In this document: piece by piece, positions 4,339 through 62,115 of the stretch | How positions within the stretch are numbered: position 1 is the stretch's first letter | Layout of the letters: the number at the start of each line of letters is the position of its first letter | Assembly (NCBI GenBank): GCA_963836085.1 | Contig: CAWIHT010000014.1 | Location: forward strand, 296,773-360,772 | Direction: 5' to 3' | DNA length: 64,000 bases | From: an uncultured Actinomycetota bacterium | Lineage (GTDB): Bacteria; Actinomycetota; Acidimicrobiia; Spongiisociales; UBA5794 | Translations under genes and position numbers: made by a program | Notes under the pieces: model-generated | Databases searched by the model: none | What the model was told of the DNA's origin: nothing | What the model saw: only the letters and a program-made list of their open reading frames with translations

Positions 4339-5180
4339 GGAAAGCGGCCGTCGTGGTTGACGAGGCATCGTTCCGCTACGGATCGACGACCGCGGTCGCG
4401 CCATCGTCCGCCGAGATCCCCGAGGGCAGCATCACCGCCATCATTGGCCCAAACGGGTCGGGAAAGTCAACGATGCTGAACGGCATCGCCGGCCTGATCG
4501 CTCCGTCGACCGGTTCGATCACGACGATGCCCGTCGGCGACCGGTTGAGGCGGTTGGCCTACGTGTTGCAGTCCACCCGCGTGAACGAGTCCCTGCCGAT
4601 CACCGTGCGCGAGGTCGTCACGATGGGGAGATACCCATCGACAGGTCCCTACCGCCGGCTTCGCGGCGACGACCGGTCGGCCGTCACAGCCGCCATGGAG
4701 CGGATGAAGATCGCCAGCCTCGCCGACCGGCACCTCACCGAACTCTCCGGGGGTCAGCGCCAACGGGTCTTCGTCGCACAGGGCCTCGCTCAGGATCACG
4801 ACATGTTGCTGCTCGACGAGCCGCTGACCGGACTGGACATCACCTCGGCGCAGGCCATCGACGACGTCATTCACGAGGAACAGGCCGACGGGTGCACGAT
4901 CGTCCAGACGACCCACGACCTCACCGCGGCACAGGTTGCCGACTACGTGGTCCTGATGTCGGGGAGGATCGTGGCGTCTGGTCCGCCGAAGGCCGTTCTC
5001 ACCGAAGACAATCTGCGGGCCGCATACGGGCCGAGCCTGATCCACATGAAGGACACCCGTCTCTTCCTGGACGATCCGGCCCACCAGCACCCGACCGAGC
5101 GGCACGAGCACCAGGATCGATCGATCCATCTCGAGGTATCGCCGACCGATCGACATGCCGGAGACGCGGCGGTCGACTGA
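4329..5180 (+). CDS. znuC: Zinc ABC transporter ATP-binding protein with a His-rich C-terminal tail
   Basis: Walker A GPNGSGKST, signature LSGGQRQR, Walker B LLLDEP. A GTG start at 4329 overlaps the zur stop. The tail HQHPTERHEHQDRSIH is rich in His. The ORF-track start at 4155 is an upstream over-extension. Confidence 0.85.
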   Translation: MPLRKAAVVVDEASFRYGSTTAVAPSSAEIPEGSITAIIGPNGSGKSTMLNGIAGLIAPSTGSITTMPVGDRLRRLAYVLQSTRVNESLPITVREVVTMGRYPSTGPYRRLRGDDRSAVTAAMERMKIASLADRHLTELSGGQRQRVFVAQGLAQDHDMLLLDEPLTGLDITSAQAIDDVIHEEQADGCTIVQTTHDLTAAQVADYVVLMSGRIVASGPPKAVLTEDNLRAAYGPSLIHMKDTRLFLDDPAHQHPTERHEHQDRSIHLEVSPTDRHAGDAAVD

Positions 5181-6295: not shown

Positions 6296-6512
6296 ACGTC
6301 TCCCCTTCAGGGGGGAAGGCGAAGACACTCTTCGTCTCCCCCGCCACCAGGTGGGGGAGACGCGATCGAGCGACTGCTCGATCGCAGAGGGGCCACCTCA
6401 CCACACGGCAGGCCTCATCTTGGCGGTTCGATCTCCCAGAGCCCCCTCCGCTGCGCTCCGGCCTGGCGGCCGGTGCTCGCGCCTCCCCCACTTCGTAGGA
6501 GAGGCGAGGAGT
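6296..6512 (-). repeat. Composite GC-rich palindromic repeat element (full unit, reverse orientation) of the family also found at 18.0, 27.7, 47.5-48.7, 52.0 and 61.7-62.1 kb
   Basis: Contains the reverse complement of hairpin modules gcgatcgagc-N-gctcgatcgc, gtctccccc-N-gggggagac and cctctcccacg..cgtgggggagg, the ccggccgccaggccgg hairpin, and the closing inverted repeat ccccctctgc/gcagaggggg. Confidence 0.7.
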
Positions 6513-18027: not shown

Positions 18028-18090
18028 CAGCCCCCTCCGCTGTGCTCCGGCCAGCGGCCGGAACTCGCGCCTCCCCCACTTCGTGAGGGA
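18028..18090 (-). repeat. Partial copy of the palindromic repeat family (B module) between convergent genes
   Basis: cagccccctccgctgtgctccggccagcggccggaactcgcgcctcccccacttcgtgagggagacgaagg matches the reverse complement of the 47.5-48.7 kb B module. Confidence 0.65.
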
Positions 18091-18127
18091 GACGAAGGCG
18101 GTCGCTCGAGACACTCCATCACGTGTT

Positions 18128-45470: not shown

Positions 45471-46478
45471 ATGAACGATATTCGCGGTTCACGACCCGAG
45501 ATTGCAGACTCCGTCCGCCTGGACATGTACTCCGCCATGGTGCGGGCCCGGGTCTTCGAGAAGCGCACATACGACCTCTTCATGAGCGGACTCGTCAAGG
45601 GGACCACCCACCTTGGAACGGGCCAGGAGGCCGTCGCAGCGGGATTCGCCACCGCTATGCGCGACGACGACATGGTCTTCTGCACGTATCGGGGCCACAA
45701 CCACACCCTCCTTCGCGGTGCCCCCATGGACTCGCTCATGGGTGAACTCCTCGGGCGCGAGAGCGGGTGCTGCGGGGGCAAGGGCGGATCGATGCACCTG
45801 ACCGACGTCGAGCAGTACGCCATGGGCTCGTATGCCATCGTCGGGGCGCACCTCCCCGTCGCGGCCGGTACGGCCTGGGCGTCGCAGGAGCGGGGAACCG
45901 GGCAGGTGACCGTCTGCTTCTTCGGTGACGGCACCACCAACATCGGCGCCTTCCACGAGTCCCTCAACATGGCGGCCGTGTGGGGACTCCCCGTCGTCTA
46001 CGTGTGCGAGAACAACCTCTATATGGAATACACGCCGATCTCGTCGGTCACAGCCGTACCGAATCCGGCCGCTGACCGCGCAGCGTCCTACGGACTCGAC
46101 CGAATCATCGTGGACGGCAACGACGCGGACGCCGTGTATCGGACAGCCCTCGCCGCCCTCGGTCGGGCCCGCGCGGGCGACGGACCGTCTCTCATCGAGG
46201 CCCAGACCTACCGCCACCACGGACACTCAAGAGCCGACCCTGGCAAGTACCGCCCCGACGAAGAGGTCGCGGCCTGGATGAACAAGGATCCTCTGGTGAT
46301 CTACCGGGATCGGCTCGAGGGCATGGGCTTCGCAGCTTCCGATCTCGATCGCGTCGAGGAGGAAGCCAGGGCCGAAATCGACGCCGCCACCGAGGCCGCA
46401 AAGGCGTCGCCCGAACCTGGCGAAGCGGTCCTGATGACCGATCTGTGGGCCGATGGAGGTTCCTCATGGCGACGCTGA
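45471..46478 (+). CDS. 2-oxoacid (pyruvate/acetoin) dehydrogenase E1 component alpha subunit, TPP-dependent
   Basis: TPP-binding GDG…N region (FFGDGTTNIGAFHESLNMA) and the HGHS phosphorylation-loop equivalent YRHHGHSRADP. Confidence 0.9.
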   Translation: MNDIRGSRPEIADSVRLDMYSAMVRARVFEKRTYDLFMSGLVKGTTHLGTGQEAVAAGFATAMRDDDMVFCTYRGHNHTLLRGAPMDSLMGELLGRESGCCGGKGGSMHLTDVEQYAMGSYAIVGAHLPVAAGTAWASQERGTGQVTVCFFGDGTTNIGAFHESLNMAAVWGLPVVYVCENNLYMEYTPISSVTAVPNPAADRAASYGLDRIIVDGNDADAVYRTALAALGRARAGDGPSLIEAQTYRHHGHSRADPGKYRPDEEVAAWMNKDPLVIYRDRLEGMGFAASDLDRVEEEARAEIDAATEAAKASPEPGEAVLMTDLWADGGSSWRR

Positions 46479-47440
46479 CCTACCGAGAAGCCGTTGCGCG
46501 GGGTATTGCGCAGGAGATGGCGCGCGACGATCGCGTACTCCTCATCGGCGAAGATGTCGCAGAGGCCGGCGGGGTCTTCAAGACCACGCAGGGACTGCGT
46601 GAGCAATTCGGCCCACGCCGGGTTCGCGACACCCCGATCTCTGAGGAGGCCATCACCGGCATGGTGATGGGCGCCGCGATGAACGGTCTCCGTCCGATCG
46701 GCGAGATCATGTTCAGCGACTTCCTCGCTACCTGCTGGGACATCGTGGTCAACCAGATCGCCAAGACCCGCTACATGACCGGCGGGCAGGTTGAACTGCC
46801 TCTCGTTCTGCGTTCTGCCAACGGTGGGGGCGCGAGGTTCGGGGGACAGCACTCACAGAGCATCGAGAACTGGGCGATGGCGATCCCTGGCCTCAAGGTG
46901 GTCGCCCCGTCCAGTCCGATCGATGTGGTTGGCCTCATGGCGGCCTCGATCCGGGATCAAGACCCCGTGGTCTTCCTGGAGCACAAGGCGCTCTTTGCGA
47001 CCAAGGGCGAAGTACCGGACGGCGAAATCGTTGACACCCTCGGCACGGCAAGGACCCTTCGACAAGGCGACAATGCCACGATCGTGGCGCTCGCCGCGAT
47101 GGTGCCGAAGGCAGTTGAGGCGGCCGAGATCCTGGCCGCGGAAGGGATCAACGCGGAGGTCATCGACCCTCGCACCCTGGTCCCCCTCGATGTCACCGCG
47201 ATTGCGACGTCGGTCTCGAAGACCGGTCGCTTGTTCACCGTCGAGGAGAACCCCCGTCTGTGCGGTTGGGGCGCCGAAGTGTCGTCGATCGTCGCAGAAG
47301 AATGCTTCTGGGATCTCGACGGCCCGATCGTCCGAATAACGACCCCCCACATCCCCCTCCCCGCGGCAGACGCCATCGAAGACCTGGCCATCCCGTCCGT
47401 AAACCGAATCGTAGAGACCGTCAGAACCTCGATGCAGTAG
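46466..47440 (+). CDS. 2-oxoacid dehydrogenase E1 component beta subunit
   Basis: Transketolase-like pyrimidine and C-terminal domains; MATLTYREAV start with GGAGG 6 nt upstream. Confidence 0.9.
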   Translation: MATLTYREAVARGIAQEMARDDRVLLIGEDVAEAGGVFKTTQGLREQFGPRRVRDTPISEEAITGMVMGAAMNGLRPIGEIMFSDFLATCWDIVVNQIAKTRYMTGGQVELPLVLRSANGGGARFGGQHSQSIENWAMAIPGLKVVAPSSPIDVVGLMAASIRDQDPVVFLEHKALFATKGEVPDGEIVDTLGTARTLRQGDNATIVALAAMVPKAVEAAEILAAEGINAEVIDPRTLVPLDVTAIATSVSKTGRLFTVEENPRLCGWGAEVSSIVAEECFWDLDGPIVRITTPHIPLPAADAIEDLAIPSVNRIVETVRTSMQ

Positions 47441-47486
47441 GCGCCTGATCTTCGCCTCTGCCGTGTGTGTTGCCTCGGGCGTGTAC

Positions 47487-47558
47487 GTCTTCGCCTCTCC
47501 CACGCAGTGGGCGAGGCGCGAGCACCGGCCGCCAGGCCGGAGCGCAGCGGAGGGGGCT
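47487..47558 (+). repeat. Partial copy (B module) of the palindromic repeat family
   Basis: gtcttcgcctctcccacgcagtgggcgaggcgcgagcaccggccgccaggccggagcgcagcggagggggct. Confidence 0.7.
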
Positions 47559-47562
47559 GTCC

Positions 47563-47946
47563 TCAGCGTTCTCGATTGAGTGGGTCCGGCACGGACGCCG
47601 GGTCTTCAAGAGCACGGGCAATGAGATGGAGCGTGTCGTCCATCTGATCGAGGACGTAGTCGTCCCAGAAGCGCAGCACGAACCATCCGTTGCGTCGGAA
47701 CCAGAGGTCTCGACCTCGGTCCCGCTCGCGTTGCTTGTCGGTGTGCGTGTCGCCGTCGACCTCCACGATGAGCCGGGCTGAGAGACACGCAAAGTCCGCG
47801 ATGAACGGCCCGATCGGCTCCTGGCGCCGGAACCTGACTCCCATGTGCTTGCGCCTCAGGTGATACCACAGACGATCCTCAGCAACCGTCGGATCCGCCC
47901 GCATCTCTCGCGCAAACCGCAGCGTTCTCCGCTCCCGATAGGCCAT
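47563..47946 (-). CDS. DUF559 (Vsr/restriction-endonuclease-like fold) domain protein
   Basis: RRQEPIGPFIADFACLSARLIVEVDGDTH…DRGRDLWFRRNGWFVLRFWDDYV matches DUF559; embedded between repeat copies. Confidence 0.8.
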   Translation of the reverse strand: MAYRERRTLRFAREMRADPTVAEDRLWYHLRRKHMGVRFRRQEPIGPFIADFACLSARLIVEVDGDTHTDKQRERDRGRDLWFRRNGWFVLRFWDDYVLDQMDDTLHLIARALEDPASVPDPLNRER

Positions 47947-47996
47947 GAACGAGTCGTACCGCGTCCGTACTCCCCATTCAAGACCCGTGAAAGCCG

Positions 47997-48700
47997 GAGG
48001 CCCCCTCTGCGATCGAGCAGCCGCTCGATCGCGTCTCCCCCACCTGACGGCGGTGGAGACGAAGACCTGTCTTGGCCTCTCCCACGCCGTGGGGGAGGCG
48101 CGAGCACCGGCCGCCAGGCCGGAGCGCAGCAGAGGGGGCTCACGGGGATTGAATCACCAAGATGTGGTCTCGCGTGTGGCGAGATGCCCCCTCTGCGATC
48201 GAGCAGCCGCTCGATCGCGTCTCCCCCACCTGACGGCGGTGGAGACGAAGACCTGTCTTGGCCTCTCCCACGCCGTGGGGGAGGCGCGAGCACCGGCCGC
48301 CAGGCCGGAGCGCAGCAGAGGGGGCTCACGGGGATTGAATCACCAAGATGTGGTCTCGCGTGTGGCGAGATGCCCCCTCTGCGATCGAGCAGCCGCTCGA
48401 TCGCGTCTCCCCCACCTGACGGCGGTGGAGACGAAGACCTGTCTTGGCCTCTCCCACGCCGTGGGGGAGGCGCGAGCACCGGCCGCCAGGCCGGAGCGCA
48501 GCAGAGGGGGCTCACGGGGATTGAATCACCAAGATGTGGTCTCGCGTGTGGCGAGATGCCCCCTCTGCGATCGAGCAGCCGCTCGATCGCGTCTCCCCCA
48601 CCTGACGGCGGTGGAGACGAAGACCTGTCTTGGCCTCTCCCACGCCGTGGGGGAGGCGCGAGCACCGGCCGCCAGGCCGGAGCGCAGCGGAGGGGGCTAC
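47997..48700 (+). repeat. Tandem array of about 3.8 near-identical copies of a 186-bp composite palindromic unit
   Basis: Unit boundaries at 48001, 48187, 48373 and 48559 (period exactly 186). Each unit carries hairpins gcgatcgagc/gctcgatcgc, gtctccccc…ggtggagac, cctctcccacg/cgtgggggagg, ccggcc/ggccgg and tctcgc/gcgaga, with the closing inverted repeat gccccctctgc/gcagagggggc. The period is divisible by 3, which creates spurious long ORFs in all frames. Confidence 0.85.
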
Positions 48701-49038
48701 TCCGCTGCCGGGAGGTAGCGGTCGGGTTCTTCGAAGATGTCGAGGCCACGGGTGCCTGGGGCGACCCAGGTGGTGTGGGGGATGCCGCCTGGGACGAAGT
48801 AGGTGTCGCCGCGGTGATACTCGCCGGTCTCATCACCGATCTGCATCCGGACCGTCCCGCTGAGGACGATCCCCCATTGGTCGCCGTGGACGTGTTCTGG
48901 CACGACGATCTCTCGATCGGTCGCTTCATAGAACATCACAAGACCGCGATCTCCCGACGAAAGGTACGCGTCGAGAGCGACATCCCCGTCCGGCCTCGGC
49001 AGCGCTTTGACGAAGGCGGGGAACTCGTTCTCCATCAA
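48697..49038 (-). CDS. Cupin domain protein
   Basis: Cupin_2 motifs (VPEHVHGDQWGIVLSG…GDTYFVPGGIPH). Confidence 0.8.
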   Translation of the reverse strand: MMENEFPAFVKALPRPDGDVALDAYLSSGDRGLVMFYEATDREIVVPEHVHGDQWGIVLSGTVRMQIGDETGEYHRGDTYFVPGGIPHTTWVAPGTRGLDIFEEPDRYLPAAE

Positions 49039-49049
49039 ACCTCCGTGAG

Positions 49050-50060
49050 TCAGGAGTACTGCTGCACCGCTTCGGGAACACCGCCCTTTTCGGCAGAGCG
49101 GACAAGGGCTTCGAGGATCGCCACGTTGCCGAGTCGCTCAGCGTTGCTGAAGCGGTAGTCGGCACGTCCTGCGACCGCGTCGGCCCAGTGCTCGTAGCCG
49201 GCCTTGACCGGACTGGCCGGCTCGAAGTCGATGCGAGCCTGGTCGGTGTCGCCGCGGTGGCGGGTGTAGAAGTGGGTCGTCCCGCCCGGATCGACATGCT
49301 GGGTCTCGCGGGCCTCGGCCCATGCGAGGCTACCGAACACTGCGAATCGGGCGTAGTCGGGGGTGGCGGAGAGAGCGGCGATGCTACCGGTCGAACCATC
49401 GGCGAAGCGGAAGTGCGCGGACACGACGTCACCAGTCGGAATCGCAAGGATGCGCTTGGCAACATGCGCCTGCACTTCGACGACCTCGCCGGCAAGGCTG
49501 AGCATCATGTCGCTGAGGTGAACACCCATGCCGGTCCATCCGGCGGCCGGGGACTCTTCCTTGCTCCCGCGCCAGTTGTCGGCTGCCATGTTGAGCCAGC
49601 GGTCGTGGCTCCAATGCGCCTCCATGTGGAGGATCGTGCCCAACTCGCCCGAATCGGCCATGCGCTTCATCTCTTCCCATGCTGGCTCGAAACGACGTTC
49701 GTGACCGATACCCATGATGATCCCTGCGCGATCACAGGCCTCGATCATCGTCCGGGCGCTGTCGACAGTGAGGGCCAGCGGCTTCTCGCAGAAGATCTCC
49801 TTGCCGGCTGCAGCAGCGCGGACAACGGCCTCTTCATGGAACAGGTGAGGAATGGTGAGGATCACGGCTTCGACGTTCGGGTCGTCGAGCGCGTCCTGGT
49901 AGTCGGGGTAGACGGGCAGGCCGTAGTCGGCCGTGTACTTCTTCGCCGTCTCTTCAAACGGATCGACGCCGCAGACGATCTCGATCTTCTCGCTGTCCTC
50001 CAGGACCTTGGTGACCTGGCTCCCCCACCAACCGAGCCCGACCTGGGCGGCCTTCAACAT
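49050..50060 (-). CDS. Gfo/Idh/MocA family oxidoreductase
   Basis: N-terminal Rossmann KAAQVGLGWWG and the EKP motif (IFCEKPLALT). Confidence 0.9.
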   Translation of the reverse strand: MLKAAQVGLGWWGSQVTKVLEDSEKIEIVCGVDPFEETAKKYTADYGLPVYPDYQDALDDPNVEAVILTIPHLFHEEAVVRAAAAGKEIFCEKPLALTVDSARTMIEACDRAGIIMGIGHERRFEPAWEEMKRMADSGELGTILHMEAHWSHDRWLNMAADNWRGSKEESPAAGWTGMGVHLSDMMLSLAGEVVEVQAHVAKRILAIPTGDVVSAHFRFADGSTGSIAALSATPDYARFAVFGSLAWAEARETQHVDPGGTTHFYTRHRGDTDQARIDFEPASPVKAGYEHWADAVAGRADYRFSNAERLGNVAILEALVRSAEKGGVPEAVQQYS

Positions 50061-51968: not shown

Positions 51969-52029
51969 GGGAGCTACCAGCTGCCAGCCACCAGCAAGAG
52001 GCGATCCAGCCGCATCTTCGCGCTTGAAG

Positions 52030-52108
52030 CTCCCAGAGCCCCCTCCGCTGCGCTCCGACCTAGCGGCCGGTGCTCGCGCCTCCCCCACTGCGTGGGAGAG
52101 GCGAAGAC
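52030..52108 (-). repeat. Partial copy (B module plus linker) of the palindromic repeat family between convergent genes
   Basis: gagccccctccgctgcgctccgacctagcggccggtgctcgcgcctcccccactgcgtgggagaggcgaagac. Confidence 0.7.
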
Positions 52109-52128
52109 ACGTCGGGCTCGTAGCTCTC

Positions 52129-53172
52129 CTACGGCTCGATGATCACTTTCAACGCACCGTCTCGGCGCTCGTTGAAGGTGTCAATGGCGGTGCGGAAATC
52201 GTCGAGGGGGAAGGTGTGGGTGTGGAGTTCGTTCACGCGGATGCGTCCGTCCGATACGAGCGGCATCGCCCGGCGCATTCCGCCGGCTGTTGCTCGAACG
52301 CCGACCAGTTCCTTCTCGTAGAGCACGAGATCCTGGAGCGAGAGGGTCACATCCTCGACCGGGATACCGACCGAGGCACATCGCCCGCCCTTGTGGAGCA
52401 TGGCGAGCGCCCAGCGGTAGGAGTCCGGCACGCCGGCGCAGTCGAGCGCCACGTCGGGCCCGATGTCGTCGGTCATCGCTCGCACCGTCTCGACCGGATC
52501 ATTGACGGCGTAGTCGACCGTCTCGTATCCCAACTCGGCAGCCTTCGCGAGGCGCTCACCGCGCCCCACCACGATCACCCGTCCGGCGCCAAGCGCCTTC
52601 GCCGCGTCACAGGCCAACAGACCCACCGGTCCGGGACCGAGGACGACCACCGTTGCACCGGAACTGATATTGCCGCGCTCGGCCGTGTGGAGGGCGATCG
52701 CTGCCGGGTCGAGCAAGGCGCCCTCGTGAAAGCTCATCTCGTCCGGCAAGTGGAAGACCGATTTGACGCCGTGGACGACGTACTCGGCGAAGGCTCCCTG
52801 CCAGTTGTGCCCGTACTGGCGATGCACATCGGTGTTGCCGTAGTTCTCGCACAGGTTGTAGCGACCCTCGACACACTTCTTGCAGAACCCGCACGCATCG
52901 TGCGAAGTGCCGGCGACGCGATCACCGACCGCGAATCCGAGGGCGGCGGCACCCTCGCCGAGTTCGCACACCACACCGGCCCACTCATGGCCGGGGATGA
53001 ACGGATATGACGGTGGCCAGAAGCCCGGGTAGTCGCCTCGCAAGAGGTGGGCATCGGTGCCACAGATCGTGATGGCCTTGACGCGGCACAACACCTCCTG
53101 CGGCCCGGGAGCCGGCTTCTCGACATCTTCGATGCCGAACTCGTCGGGACCAGTGAGCACTAGAGCCTTCAT
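52129..53172 (-). CDS. Zinc-dependent alcohol dehydrogenase (MDR family)
   Basis: ATG at 53172 (MKALVLTGP). Catalytic Zn GHE motif (GHEWAG), structural Zn Cys cluster CGFCKKCVEGRYNLC, GPGPVG Rossmann. Confidence 0.9.
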   Translation of the reverse strand: MKALVLTGPDEFGIEDVEKPAPGPQEVLCRVKAITICGTDAHLLRGDYPGFWPPSYPFIPGHEWAGVVCELGEGAAALGFAVGDRVAGTSHDACGFCKKCVEGRYNLCENYGNTDVHRQYGHNWQGAFAEYVVHGVKSVFHLPDEMSFHEGALLDPAAIALHTAERGNISSGATVVVLGPGPVGLLACDAAKALGAGRVIVVGRGERLAKAAELGYETVDYAVNDPVETVRAMTDDIGPDVALDCAGVPDSYRWALAMLHKGGRCASVGIPVEDVTLSLQDLVLYEKELVGVRATAGGMRRAMPLVSDGRIRVNELHTHTFPLDDFRTAIDTFNERRDGALKVIIEP

Positions 53173-61704: not shown

Positions 61705-62115
61705 CGCCAGTCGCCAGTCGCCAGTCGCCGGTTCGGGGTCGGTCGCAGGCCTTCGCCTCTCCCACGGAGTGGGAGAGGCGCGAGCACCGGCCGCCAGGCC
61801 GGAGCGCAGCGGAGAGGGCTCTGGGAGCGCGAGCGCGCAGATGAGGCCTGGCGTGTGGCGAGACGCCCCCACTGCGATTGAGCAACCGTCTTCGCCTCTC
61901 CCACGCAGTGGGAGAGGCGCGAGCACCGGCCGCCAGGCCGGAGCGCAGCGGAGAGGGCTCCTCGCCTCGACACCACCTCAATCCTGAAGAACGCACCAGA
62001 GCTCATCCTCGCGATCCCATCCCCCAGGCCGCCCCCTCTGCGATCGAGCATCCGCCCGATCGCGTCTCCCCCACCTGGCGGTGGGAGAGACGAAGACCGC
62101 GACTGGCGACTGGTC
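61705..62115. repeat. ~410-bp composite repeat block bounded by inverted heptamer tandem repeats (ccagtcg x3 … cgactgg x2); candidate MITE-like insertion
   Basis: The left end is gcgccagtcgccagtcgccagtcgcc and the right end gcgactggcgactgg (its reverse complement). Inside are two B modules (61750..61820, 61890..61960), a linker-like segment and one A module (62030..62098) of the palindromic repeat family. Confidence 0.6.

Follow-up and report, generated by a model that had tools for sequence, protein, structure and literature searches.

BoxC/PIT (potential intrastrand triplex)/TM repeats have been recognised in Escherichia coli since the 1990s without an assigned origin, function or enzyme. 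In each, a pyrimidine block is followed by a purine block complementary to it and by another purine block that mirrors the first, and a survey of these repeats reported no association with a nuclease or with mobile elements (Holder et al. 2015, PMC4666352). The REP (repetitive extragenic palindromic) sequences and their composite forms, BIME (bacterial interspersed mosaic element) and REPIN, are dispersed extragenic palindromic units with compensatory stem changes, and together with the RAYT (REP-associated tyrosine transposase) gene they form the REPtron (PMC2817692, PMC3116915). The rayt gene of E. coli has BIME-2 on its flanks (Nunvar et al. 2010, PMC2817692; Bertels and Rainey 2011, PMC3116915). 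The DUF559 family, which has very many members, comprises small Vsr-like nucleases without an assigned function; E. coli has one of them, YcjD. Intergenic minisatellite-type variable-number tandem repeats (VNTRs), such as the mycobacterial interspersed repetitive units (MIRUs), are head-to-tail repeats of tens to hundreds of bp whose copy number changes by slippage or unequal exchange. Here we describe a locus from an uncultured Actinomycetota bacterium that shares features with these systems. The window, the whole stretch of DNA that was analysed, comprises 64,000 nt of contig CAWIHT010000014.1 (assembly GCA_963836085.1), and near 48 kb it carries a tandem array of 186-bp modules beside a DUF559 gene. 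The array is probably a recent expansion by unequal recombination or slippage inside a DUF559-associated cassette of BoxC-like repeat units, inserted between two genes.

The features of the locus are listed below. L numbers denote comparison loci or contigs from other assemblies.

47441-47485, no strand: spacer of the inserted block, holding a degenerate unit-head fragment (cttcgcctctgcc) and absent in L096 and L098.
47486-47558, plus strand: BoxC/TM-like unit B0, with head GTCTTCG, hairpin X, hairpin Y and tail CGCAGCGGAGGGGGC (blastn and nhmmer).
47563-47946, minus strand: DUF559 gene, encoding a Vsr-like PD-(D/E)XK nuclease of 127 amino acids (PF04480, E=8.5e-33).
47947-47999, minus strand: conserved leader of 53 nt, running from the first A unit's tail to the ATG of DUF559.
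48000-48698, no strand: tandem array of 3.8 x 186 bp, with four A units (minus) and four B units (plus) in head-to-head pairs and three linkers C between them.
48000-48066, minus strand: first of four A units, the others at 48186-48252, 48372-48438 and 48558-48624 (alignment, nhmmer and mirror test).
48068-48139, plus strand: first of four B units, the others at 48254-48325, 48440-48511 and 48626-48697 (blastn and nhmmer).
48140-48185, plus strand: first of three linkers C, the others at 48326-48371 and 48512-48557.
48697-49038, minus strand: cupin gene (Pfam, PF07883).

The array is real non-coding DNA, a cluster of eight structured repeat units of about 65-72 nt. Tandem Repeats Finder gives a period of 186, 3.8 copies, 99% matches and no indels over 48000-48698 (score 1391), and the self-match at a lag of 186 is perfect from 48000 to 48688. 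Both results agree with the spacing and copy number of the initial annotation, in which the copies also appeared identical. Direct comparison bears this out for the units starting at 48001, 48187 and 48373, which are the same across 186 nt, but the fourth copy (48559-48698) is partial, with 140 nt and a single mismatch (G instead of A at 48689). The array extends from 53 nt upstream of the DUF559 ATG to the TAG stop of the cupin gene, which overlaps its last base, and the gene coordinates agree with its earlier placement between the cupin 3' end and the DUF559 5' side. The description of the repeat as a composite element also holds, since the array is built of dispersed modules. What the initial annotation had missed is that A and B represent one BoxC/triplex-type unit in inverted copies, that the block containing the array is an insertion, and that the adjacency to DUF559 is non-accidental and recurs across phyla.

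The 186-bp module has three parts. A blastn search of the unit against the window separates A (1-67), B (68-141) and C (142-186), and the reverse complement of A can be aligned with B. A is thus an inverted paralogue of B, and the array is therefore A(-) B(+) C repeated, with four head-to-head pairs whose tails are joined by C. The A and B units alternate with linkers of 1 nt and 46 nt. As C joins the tails of successive A/B pairs, the period of 186 bp corresponds to A + B + C. The common A/B element has the head GTCTTCG, hairpin X (GCCTCTCCCAC nnn GTGGGAGAGGC or a variant), GCG, hairpin Y and the tail CGCAG(CG)GAGGGGGC. Unit A has its own hairpin Y (GATCGAGC nnnn GCTCGATC) and the tail CGCAGAGGGGGC. 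Together A and B measure 141 nt and are closed by an 11-bp terminal stem, the terminal inverted repeats being 11-12 bp long (GCCCCCTCTGCG/CGCAGAGGGGGC). As single-stranded DNA the pair is predicted to fold with -57.3 kcal/mol (z = -8.2) in a model that includes Watson-Crick pairs only. Linker C is a conserved module of about 45 nt (tCTGGGAG..CGAACC..AAGATGAGG..), found in both orientations and in every case directly next to a unit tail. Further copies of C are found in the window at 6393-6438, 61822-61864 and 51996-52035 (partial), and homologues occur in L005, L006, L009, L011, L010 (inverted), L014, L016 and L092. The possibility that C is the internally deleted remnant of a DUF559 cassette, like a miniature inverted-repeat transposable element (MITE) derived from an autonomous element, was considered and rejected; anchored alignments of three C variants to the ends of the cassette were no better than shuffles.

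Substitutions among the units preserve base pairing and mirror symmetry. Structural constraint was scored on 30 distinct units from the window and related loci. Hairpin Y has compensatory double changes in six of its ten pairs, and its sequence changes completely while staying paired; 97.9% of cells are paired, compared with about 45% in slid controls. On average 8.53 of 9 positions in the G-rich tail repeat hairpin X's 3' arm in mirror order, a value that none of 5000 shuffles reached, and two variable positions covary in mirror. In the three-block test the units show a pyrimidine block, its Watson-Crick purine complement (the two pairing as hairpin X) and a mirror purine block.

The units partly qualify as BoxC/PIT/TM repeats. 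Their three blocks (CCTCTCCC / GGGAGAGG / GGAGAGGG) have the published architecture (Holder et al. 2015, PMC4666352). Like the E. coli repeats they are G/C-rich, strictly intergenic and often arranged in inverted pairs, and their loci differ between close relatives. In addition, motifs beside DUF559 genes in other phyla match the published consensus. The spacing of the window units, on the other hand, does not agree with it. The second loop is 3 nt long in E. coli but 28-32 nt here, where it contains a covarying hairpin, and the units are about 70 nt long instead of 34-37. The conserved head GTCTTCG, the 45-nt linker and the long tandem array are further differences, and the host of the window is an Acidimicrobiia metagenome-assembled genome (MAG).

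The locus also resembles a REPtron in its organization. The units form inverted doublets and clusters of alternating orientation, the array is organized like a BIME, and a small nuclease gene lies between two inverted units, sometimes abutting a cluster. However, the flanked gene encodes a DUF559 Vsr-like PD-(D/E)XK protein and not a HUH tyrosine transposase of the IS200/IS605 type. REP sequences are single imperfect palindromes of 20-40 nt, while the units described here have 65-72 nt, two hairpins and a mirror tail, and lack the unpaired GTAG or CGTC head. The array cassette is therefore outside the REP/RAYT definition in both unit form and protein family. The CGTC-tagged REPs of Di Nocera were likewise tried as a match and set aside, as the only CGTC is paired within the hairpin X stem, and neither stems nor loops agree. 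With VNTRs the array shares its intergenic position and tandem form, and there are copy-number differences between close populations at a related locus. In contrast to a VNTR, the module is a composite of two inverted structured units and a linker, and its family is dispersed and associated with a nuclease gene. A CRISPR array was rejected, because the would-be spacers (the C linkers) are identical to one another and the neighbors are cupin, oxidoreductase and E1 dehydrogenase genes.

Comparison with relatives shows that the block is a lineage-specific insertion into the 4 nt that separate the convergent genes for cupin and E1-beta. Two long contigs of about 80% identity (L096 and L098) are collinear with 43.8-51.9 kb of the window. 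They have an empty site, TAG-cgcc-CTA, in which the cupin and E1-beta stops are 4 nt apart, and therefore about 1.25 kb of the window (47441-48696), comprising the spacer, B0, the DUF559 gene, the leader and the array, is inserted DNA. Similarly, L099 has 9 nt between two stop codons where the window has its 52-kb unit, and no units are present in any locus of L096-L100. At the block boundaries a duplication of at most 1 nt is visible in comparison with these relatives, which are only about 80% identical. A Joint Genome Institute (JGI) contig, Ga0316197_10048184 (L012), carries a block that is 97-100% identical to that of the window, while the adjoining E1 genes are 89-91% identical. Within it the spacer 47441-47485 is 98% identical and the adjoining E1-beta gene only 89%, and the switch in identity falls about 90 nt inside E1-beta. 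Such a jump between block and flank is what a recent transfer of the element would leave, provided that the contig is not a chimera of strains. The variability of this locus extends beyond the repeat block, as the E1-alpha/E1-beta pair (45471-47440) is absent from L099 and L100, where cupin or GFO has the MFS genes directly after it.

Other assemblies also contain more than one copy of the array units. A short-read assembly that is 99.8% identical to the window, GCA_049698555.1 (L001/L003), has the same locus. In this assembly and in L012 the array comprises A-B-C-A-B or A-C-B-A at the minimum; the copies differ slightly, and the contigs break inside the array. The presence of at least two A and two B copies in two further assemblies means that at least two modules are real; the only source of the exact count of 3.8 is the window assembly. 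At a related locus, three contigs with one DUF559 orthologue (L092-L094) differ in the upstream cluster: it consists of a single module in one sample, of a module and a 44-bp partial unit in another and of at least 1.6 modules in the third, and these differences are copy-number polymorphism of the same kind of array. The initial annotation had proposed to look among strains for VNTR-like behavior. Module number differs between samples at the related locus; at the locus itself, where all other assemblies break inside the array, the comparison gives a minimum of two copies.

The gene in the cassette encodes a Vsr-like nuclease and has a dN/dS of 0.15 against its L095 orthologue. The protein matches the structure 3HRL in the Protein Data Bank (E=3.9e-33), and residues E23, D51, E62, D64, H68, R79 and D80 are invariant among 30 homologues. 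The existing gene call, in the probable source contig, is a 93-amino-acid product from an internal Met (cluster member P0137), and the homologues support a length of 127. PADLOC defense-system models gave no match for the protein. Homologues were found in 45 of 72,556 plasmid records, mostly chromids, and DUF559 is therefore not a typical plasmid-borne gene. The leader has the layout TCTTGAAT, 17 nt, TACGACT, 5 nt, ATG, and may be a promoter for a leaderless mRNA; it had no match in a scan for the E. coli-type consensus promoter. It is kept in L012 (where it is 100% identical), L014/L015, L016, L017 and L092-L095. On the other side of the gene, the tail of B0 faces the DUF559 stop codon, and a B0-type unit directly follows this stop in L012, L013, L015, L017 and L092-L095.

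The cassette can be compared with the Vsr-like 'EDxHD' homing endonucleases. Like I-Bth0305I (3R3P), it has a small Vsr-fold gene that is present or absent at a site with a clean empty version, and the block has diverged much less than the DNA on either side, as would be expected of a selfish gene in recent spread, although a chimera could also account for this. The similarity of the DUF559 protein to I-Bth0305I is marginal (E=0.015), the window gene is outside any intron or intein, and the target of DUF559, if it has one, would be a dispersed repeat instead of a unique conserved gene.

DUF559 genes are found beside triplex-type repeats in several groups of bacteria. The close orthologues (62-99% identity; L012-L017 and L092-L095) have differing genomic contexts, but all are flanked by units with their tails toward the gene, and they have the conserved leader in common. 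For example, the cassette of L092-L094 lies between enoyl-CoA hydratase and aminotransferase genes in three independent k141 assemblies. A more distant set consists of 74 metagenome loci from many environments with DUF559 homologues at 41-56% identity. These were searched by regular expression for a strict motif, the published E. coli consensus CCCTCNCCC N3-6 GGGNGAGGG N3 GGGNGAGGG (PMC4666352). Sixty-four of 74 strict motifs are within 250 nt of DUF559 or overlap it, a zone that makes up 13.9% of the sequence, and 38 of the 74 loci have such a motif nearby. The motifs have an orientation bias (18 plus and 10 minus on the 5' side, 8 plus and 26 minus on the 3' side; p = 0.0018), and 11 loci have the full inverted flank. 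The enrichment is also present in a control restricted to intergenic sequence (32 of 109 vs 2 of 79 segments, p = 5.6e-7). The adjacency of the repeats to DUF559 recurs across phyla and is not accidental.

Individual genomes show the same association. In E. coli K-12 the TM repeat TMECO #9, one strict match, is located 168 nt downstream of ycjD, and a motif-like piece lies within the open reading frame (ORF) at that gene's own 3' end. In Azospirillum lipoferum two motifs form an inverted pair 44 nt upstream of DUF559, and both ends of the Sphingomonas gene carry motif-like hairpins. Neisseria gonorrhoeae 2022NG-0032 (L105 1919-2778) has a tandem array of 281 bp x 3.1 (97% matches) that begins 68 nt after DUF559, and its unit contains an inverted pair of triplex-type motifs and AGGTCGTCTGAA, which resembles a DNA uptake sequence (DUS). 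The N. gonorrhoeae record is labelled as a plasmid, but with 2.17 Mb it is probably the chromosome. Three tandem triplex motifs with a 53-bp period are found at 773-916 of L032, directly downstream of a distant DUF559 homologue. The E. coli locus (L101; NC_000913.3 1351040-1351420) also has a partial duplicate of the ycjD 3' end (ggagacggtgctggagaatattc...) between the motif-like piece in the ORF and TMECO #9, which suggests a past rearrangement. Other phylogroups of E. coli have eefRABCD at the ycjD site (PMC12817139). In the library that was searched, no paper links DUF559 or YcjD to BoxC, triplex or REP-type repeats.

A two-step history probably explains the array. First, a cassette of unit, leader, DUF559 gene and inverted unit, with one or two A-B-C modules, would have been acquired between the convergent genes. 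Second, the 186-bp module would have been amplified in place by unequal homologous exchange or by replication slippage between direct repeats. The amplification appears to be recent because three copies are still identical, and the same mechanism and age had been proposed in the initial annotation. This history draws on what was observed of how the units are built and covary in structure, of the block being an insertion and of DUF559 recurring beside motifs and arrays, while the mechanism of amplification is deduced.

By analogy with RAYT and its REP/REPIN partners, we tentatively suggest that DUF559 proteins, including YcjD and the N. gonorrhoeae protein 3HRL, may be dedicated nucleases of BoxC/PIT/TM repeats. 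The nuclease might recognize or nick the folded units and travel with them as a cassette. Acting on folded units, it could seed solitary units, inverted pairs and tandem arrays, and the window array would then be a fresh product of its activity beside its own gene.

Several points weigh against the overall interpretation of the array or limit it. Breaks made by the DUF559 nuclease are a putative driver of amplification or spread, and the formation of triplexes or hairpins by the units in vivo is likewise putative. The mirror and hairpin covariation comes from related copies and thus represents few independent events. The strict E. coli triplex consensus has no match in the window by regular expression, because the second loop has 28-32 nt with hairpin Y instead of 3 nt. 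Roughly half of the distant DUF559 loci have no motif, and the motif downstream of ycjD in E. coli has the same orientation as the gene, not the inverted one. The identity jump in L012 could reflect a strain-chimeric metagenome contig. Finally, the array copies differ slightly in the 99.8% identical short-read assembly and are identical in the window, and both the copy number and the perfect identity could have been shaped by assembly or polishing.

The same concern applies to contigs that join different loci. In L013 (1-401) a shared unit links DUF559, here with an in-frame TGA, to the locus orthologous to that at 6.4 kb in the window. This was not accepted as proof that DUF559 has relocated to the 6.4-kb locus, since the contig may be chimeric through the shared unit, and a false walk of just this kind is seen at the end of contig L002, where the last 71 nt (4363-4433) are identical to the 6.4-kb unit and not to the array unit. 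Both ends look like repeat-induced assembly walks. In addition, an untrimmed Nextera transposase adapter (agatgtgtataagagacag) remains at 1-45 of L095 in the public assembly.

Among the alternatives to recent expansion of an inserted cassette, an artefact of assembly or polishing survives best, but it is unlikely. In this case the true locus would have fewer, more or non-identical modules that were homogenized to 3.8 copies. The unit repeats do mislead assemblers, as the L002 contig end demonstrates, three short-read assemblies of the locus all break inside the array, and the few base differences between copies in GCA_049698555.1 have no counterpart in the window. Nevertheless, two independent assemblies have at least two A and at least two B copies, which contradicts the single true copy that the initial annotation had offered as an alternative. 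A perfect array of 700 bp could not have come from short reads without collapse, and the window probably comes from a 418-kb contig, a length that implies long reads or good scaffolding. Comparable arrays are also found in finished genomes, such as that of N. gonorrhoeae.

Serial transposition is less probable still. The A+B pair could be a MITE that inserted repeatedly beside itself at a preferred target, C. It has terminal inverted repeats that close a long stem, it is shorter than 300 bp and matches no protein family, the units are lineage-specific insertions with clean empty sites, and C always abuts a tail. Yet three modules agree at every base, the C linker included, and their phase is exact, which is expected from duplication of whole modules. 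As there is also no target-site duplication longer than 1 nt at the block boundaries, serial insertion is the less likely explanation, and the window yielded no transposase that shares these ends.

A function in RNA is about equally improbable. The array could be a multi-hairpin terminator, a stabilizer, an insulator or a 5' regulator of DUF559, with its copy number under selection. B units are usually found just after the stop codon of a co-oriented gene, the minus-strand RNA of the array is extremely structured (z = -15), and hairpin Y covaries. However, purine-motif triplexes and a tail with mirror symmetry are understandable in DNA rather than in RNA, and the PIT elements of E. coli showed no promoter or terminator activity (PMC4666352). 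The units have no U-tracts, and they occur in both orientations relative to neighboring genes. The consensus promoter (E. coli-type) and terminator scan of 47300-49100 found nothing. No Rfam family reached its gathering score in the whole window, the only match over 47400-48800 was a meaningless miRNA hit (E=0.48), and no tRNA or tmRNA genes were found in the window.

A protein-coding repeat can be dismissed: although the period is divisible by three and three frames are open, no Pfam family scores above cut-off in the long ORFs, the units occur in both orientations, in gaps of 4-9 nt between convergent genes of relatives and with periods of 183 and 257 bp, and their substitutions follow base-pairing and mirror rules instead of codon positions. 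The initial annotation had rightly called these ORFs artefacts, but its statement that all six frames stay open is incorrect, as only three (+1, +2 and -1) lack stops, giving ORFs of 257, 437 and 357 amino acids.

Units of this type are dispersed in the window and in related genomes. The window has 16-17 units, all outside genes and some in A/B inverted pairs. In addition to the locus described above, they are found at four sites.

6329-6512, minus strand: single-copy B-C-A composite (blastn and nhmmer).
18029-18100, minus strand: solitary B unit, more diverged (blastn and nhmmer).
51969-52130, minus strand: B unit (52035-52109) with a heptamer micro-array and part of a C, inserted DNA in comparison with L099.
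61748-62098, plus strand: cluster of B, C, partial A, B, an inverted C-like spacer and A, with inverted heptamer arrays on both sides.

A scan of the genome collection with the 26-nt core of B found seven loci, all in uncultured Actinomycetota MAGs. The uncultured actinomycete LOGT_bin.0024 (L010 3167-3825) has an imperfect A-B-C array (94%) with periods of 183 and 257 bp. This array follows a gene similar to glucose-6-phosphate dehydrogenase, its C is inverted and its hairpin Y has a different sequence; no DUF559 gene was seen in the 8-kb locus. Micro-arrays lie directly outside some unit clusters: CGCCAGT x3.6, its reverse complement GCGACTG x2.1, AGCTACC x3.4 and CAGCTACT x4. They are found in the window at 61705-61729, 62099-62113 and 51972-51995, and also in L007, L006 and L092/L093/L095. 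Those at 61.7-62.1 kb flank their cluster in inverted orientation, and none of the heptamer or octamer arrays is present at 47.4-48.7 kb. The micro-arrays could be element ends, protein-binding iterons or by-products of slippage.

In the window, the block at 47.4-48.7 kb is accessory, unstable DNA that breaks short-read assemblies, and the long ORFs over the array are artefacts. If DUF559 does act on these repeats, this would explain triplex-motif loci as hot spots of rearrangement. The physical association of DUF559 with the repeats that is seen in Acidimicrobiia, E. coli, Azospirillum, Sphingomonas and Neisseria would provide a testable function for both the nuclease family and the repeats. 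It would also be a second partnership of a nuclease and a repeat, mechanistically different from that of RAYT and REP, and one that may be tested directly in E. coli.

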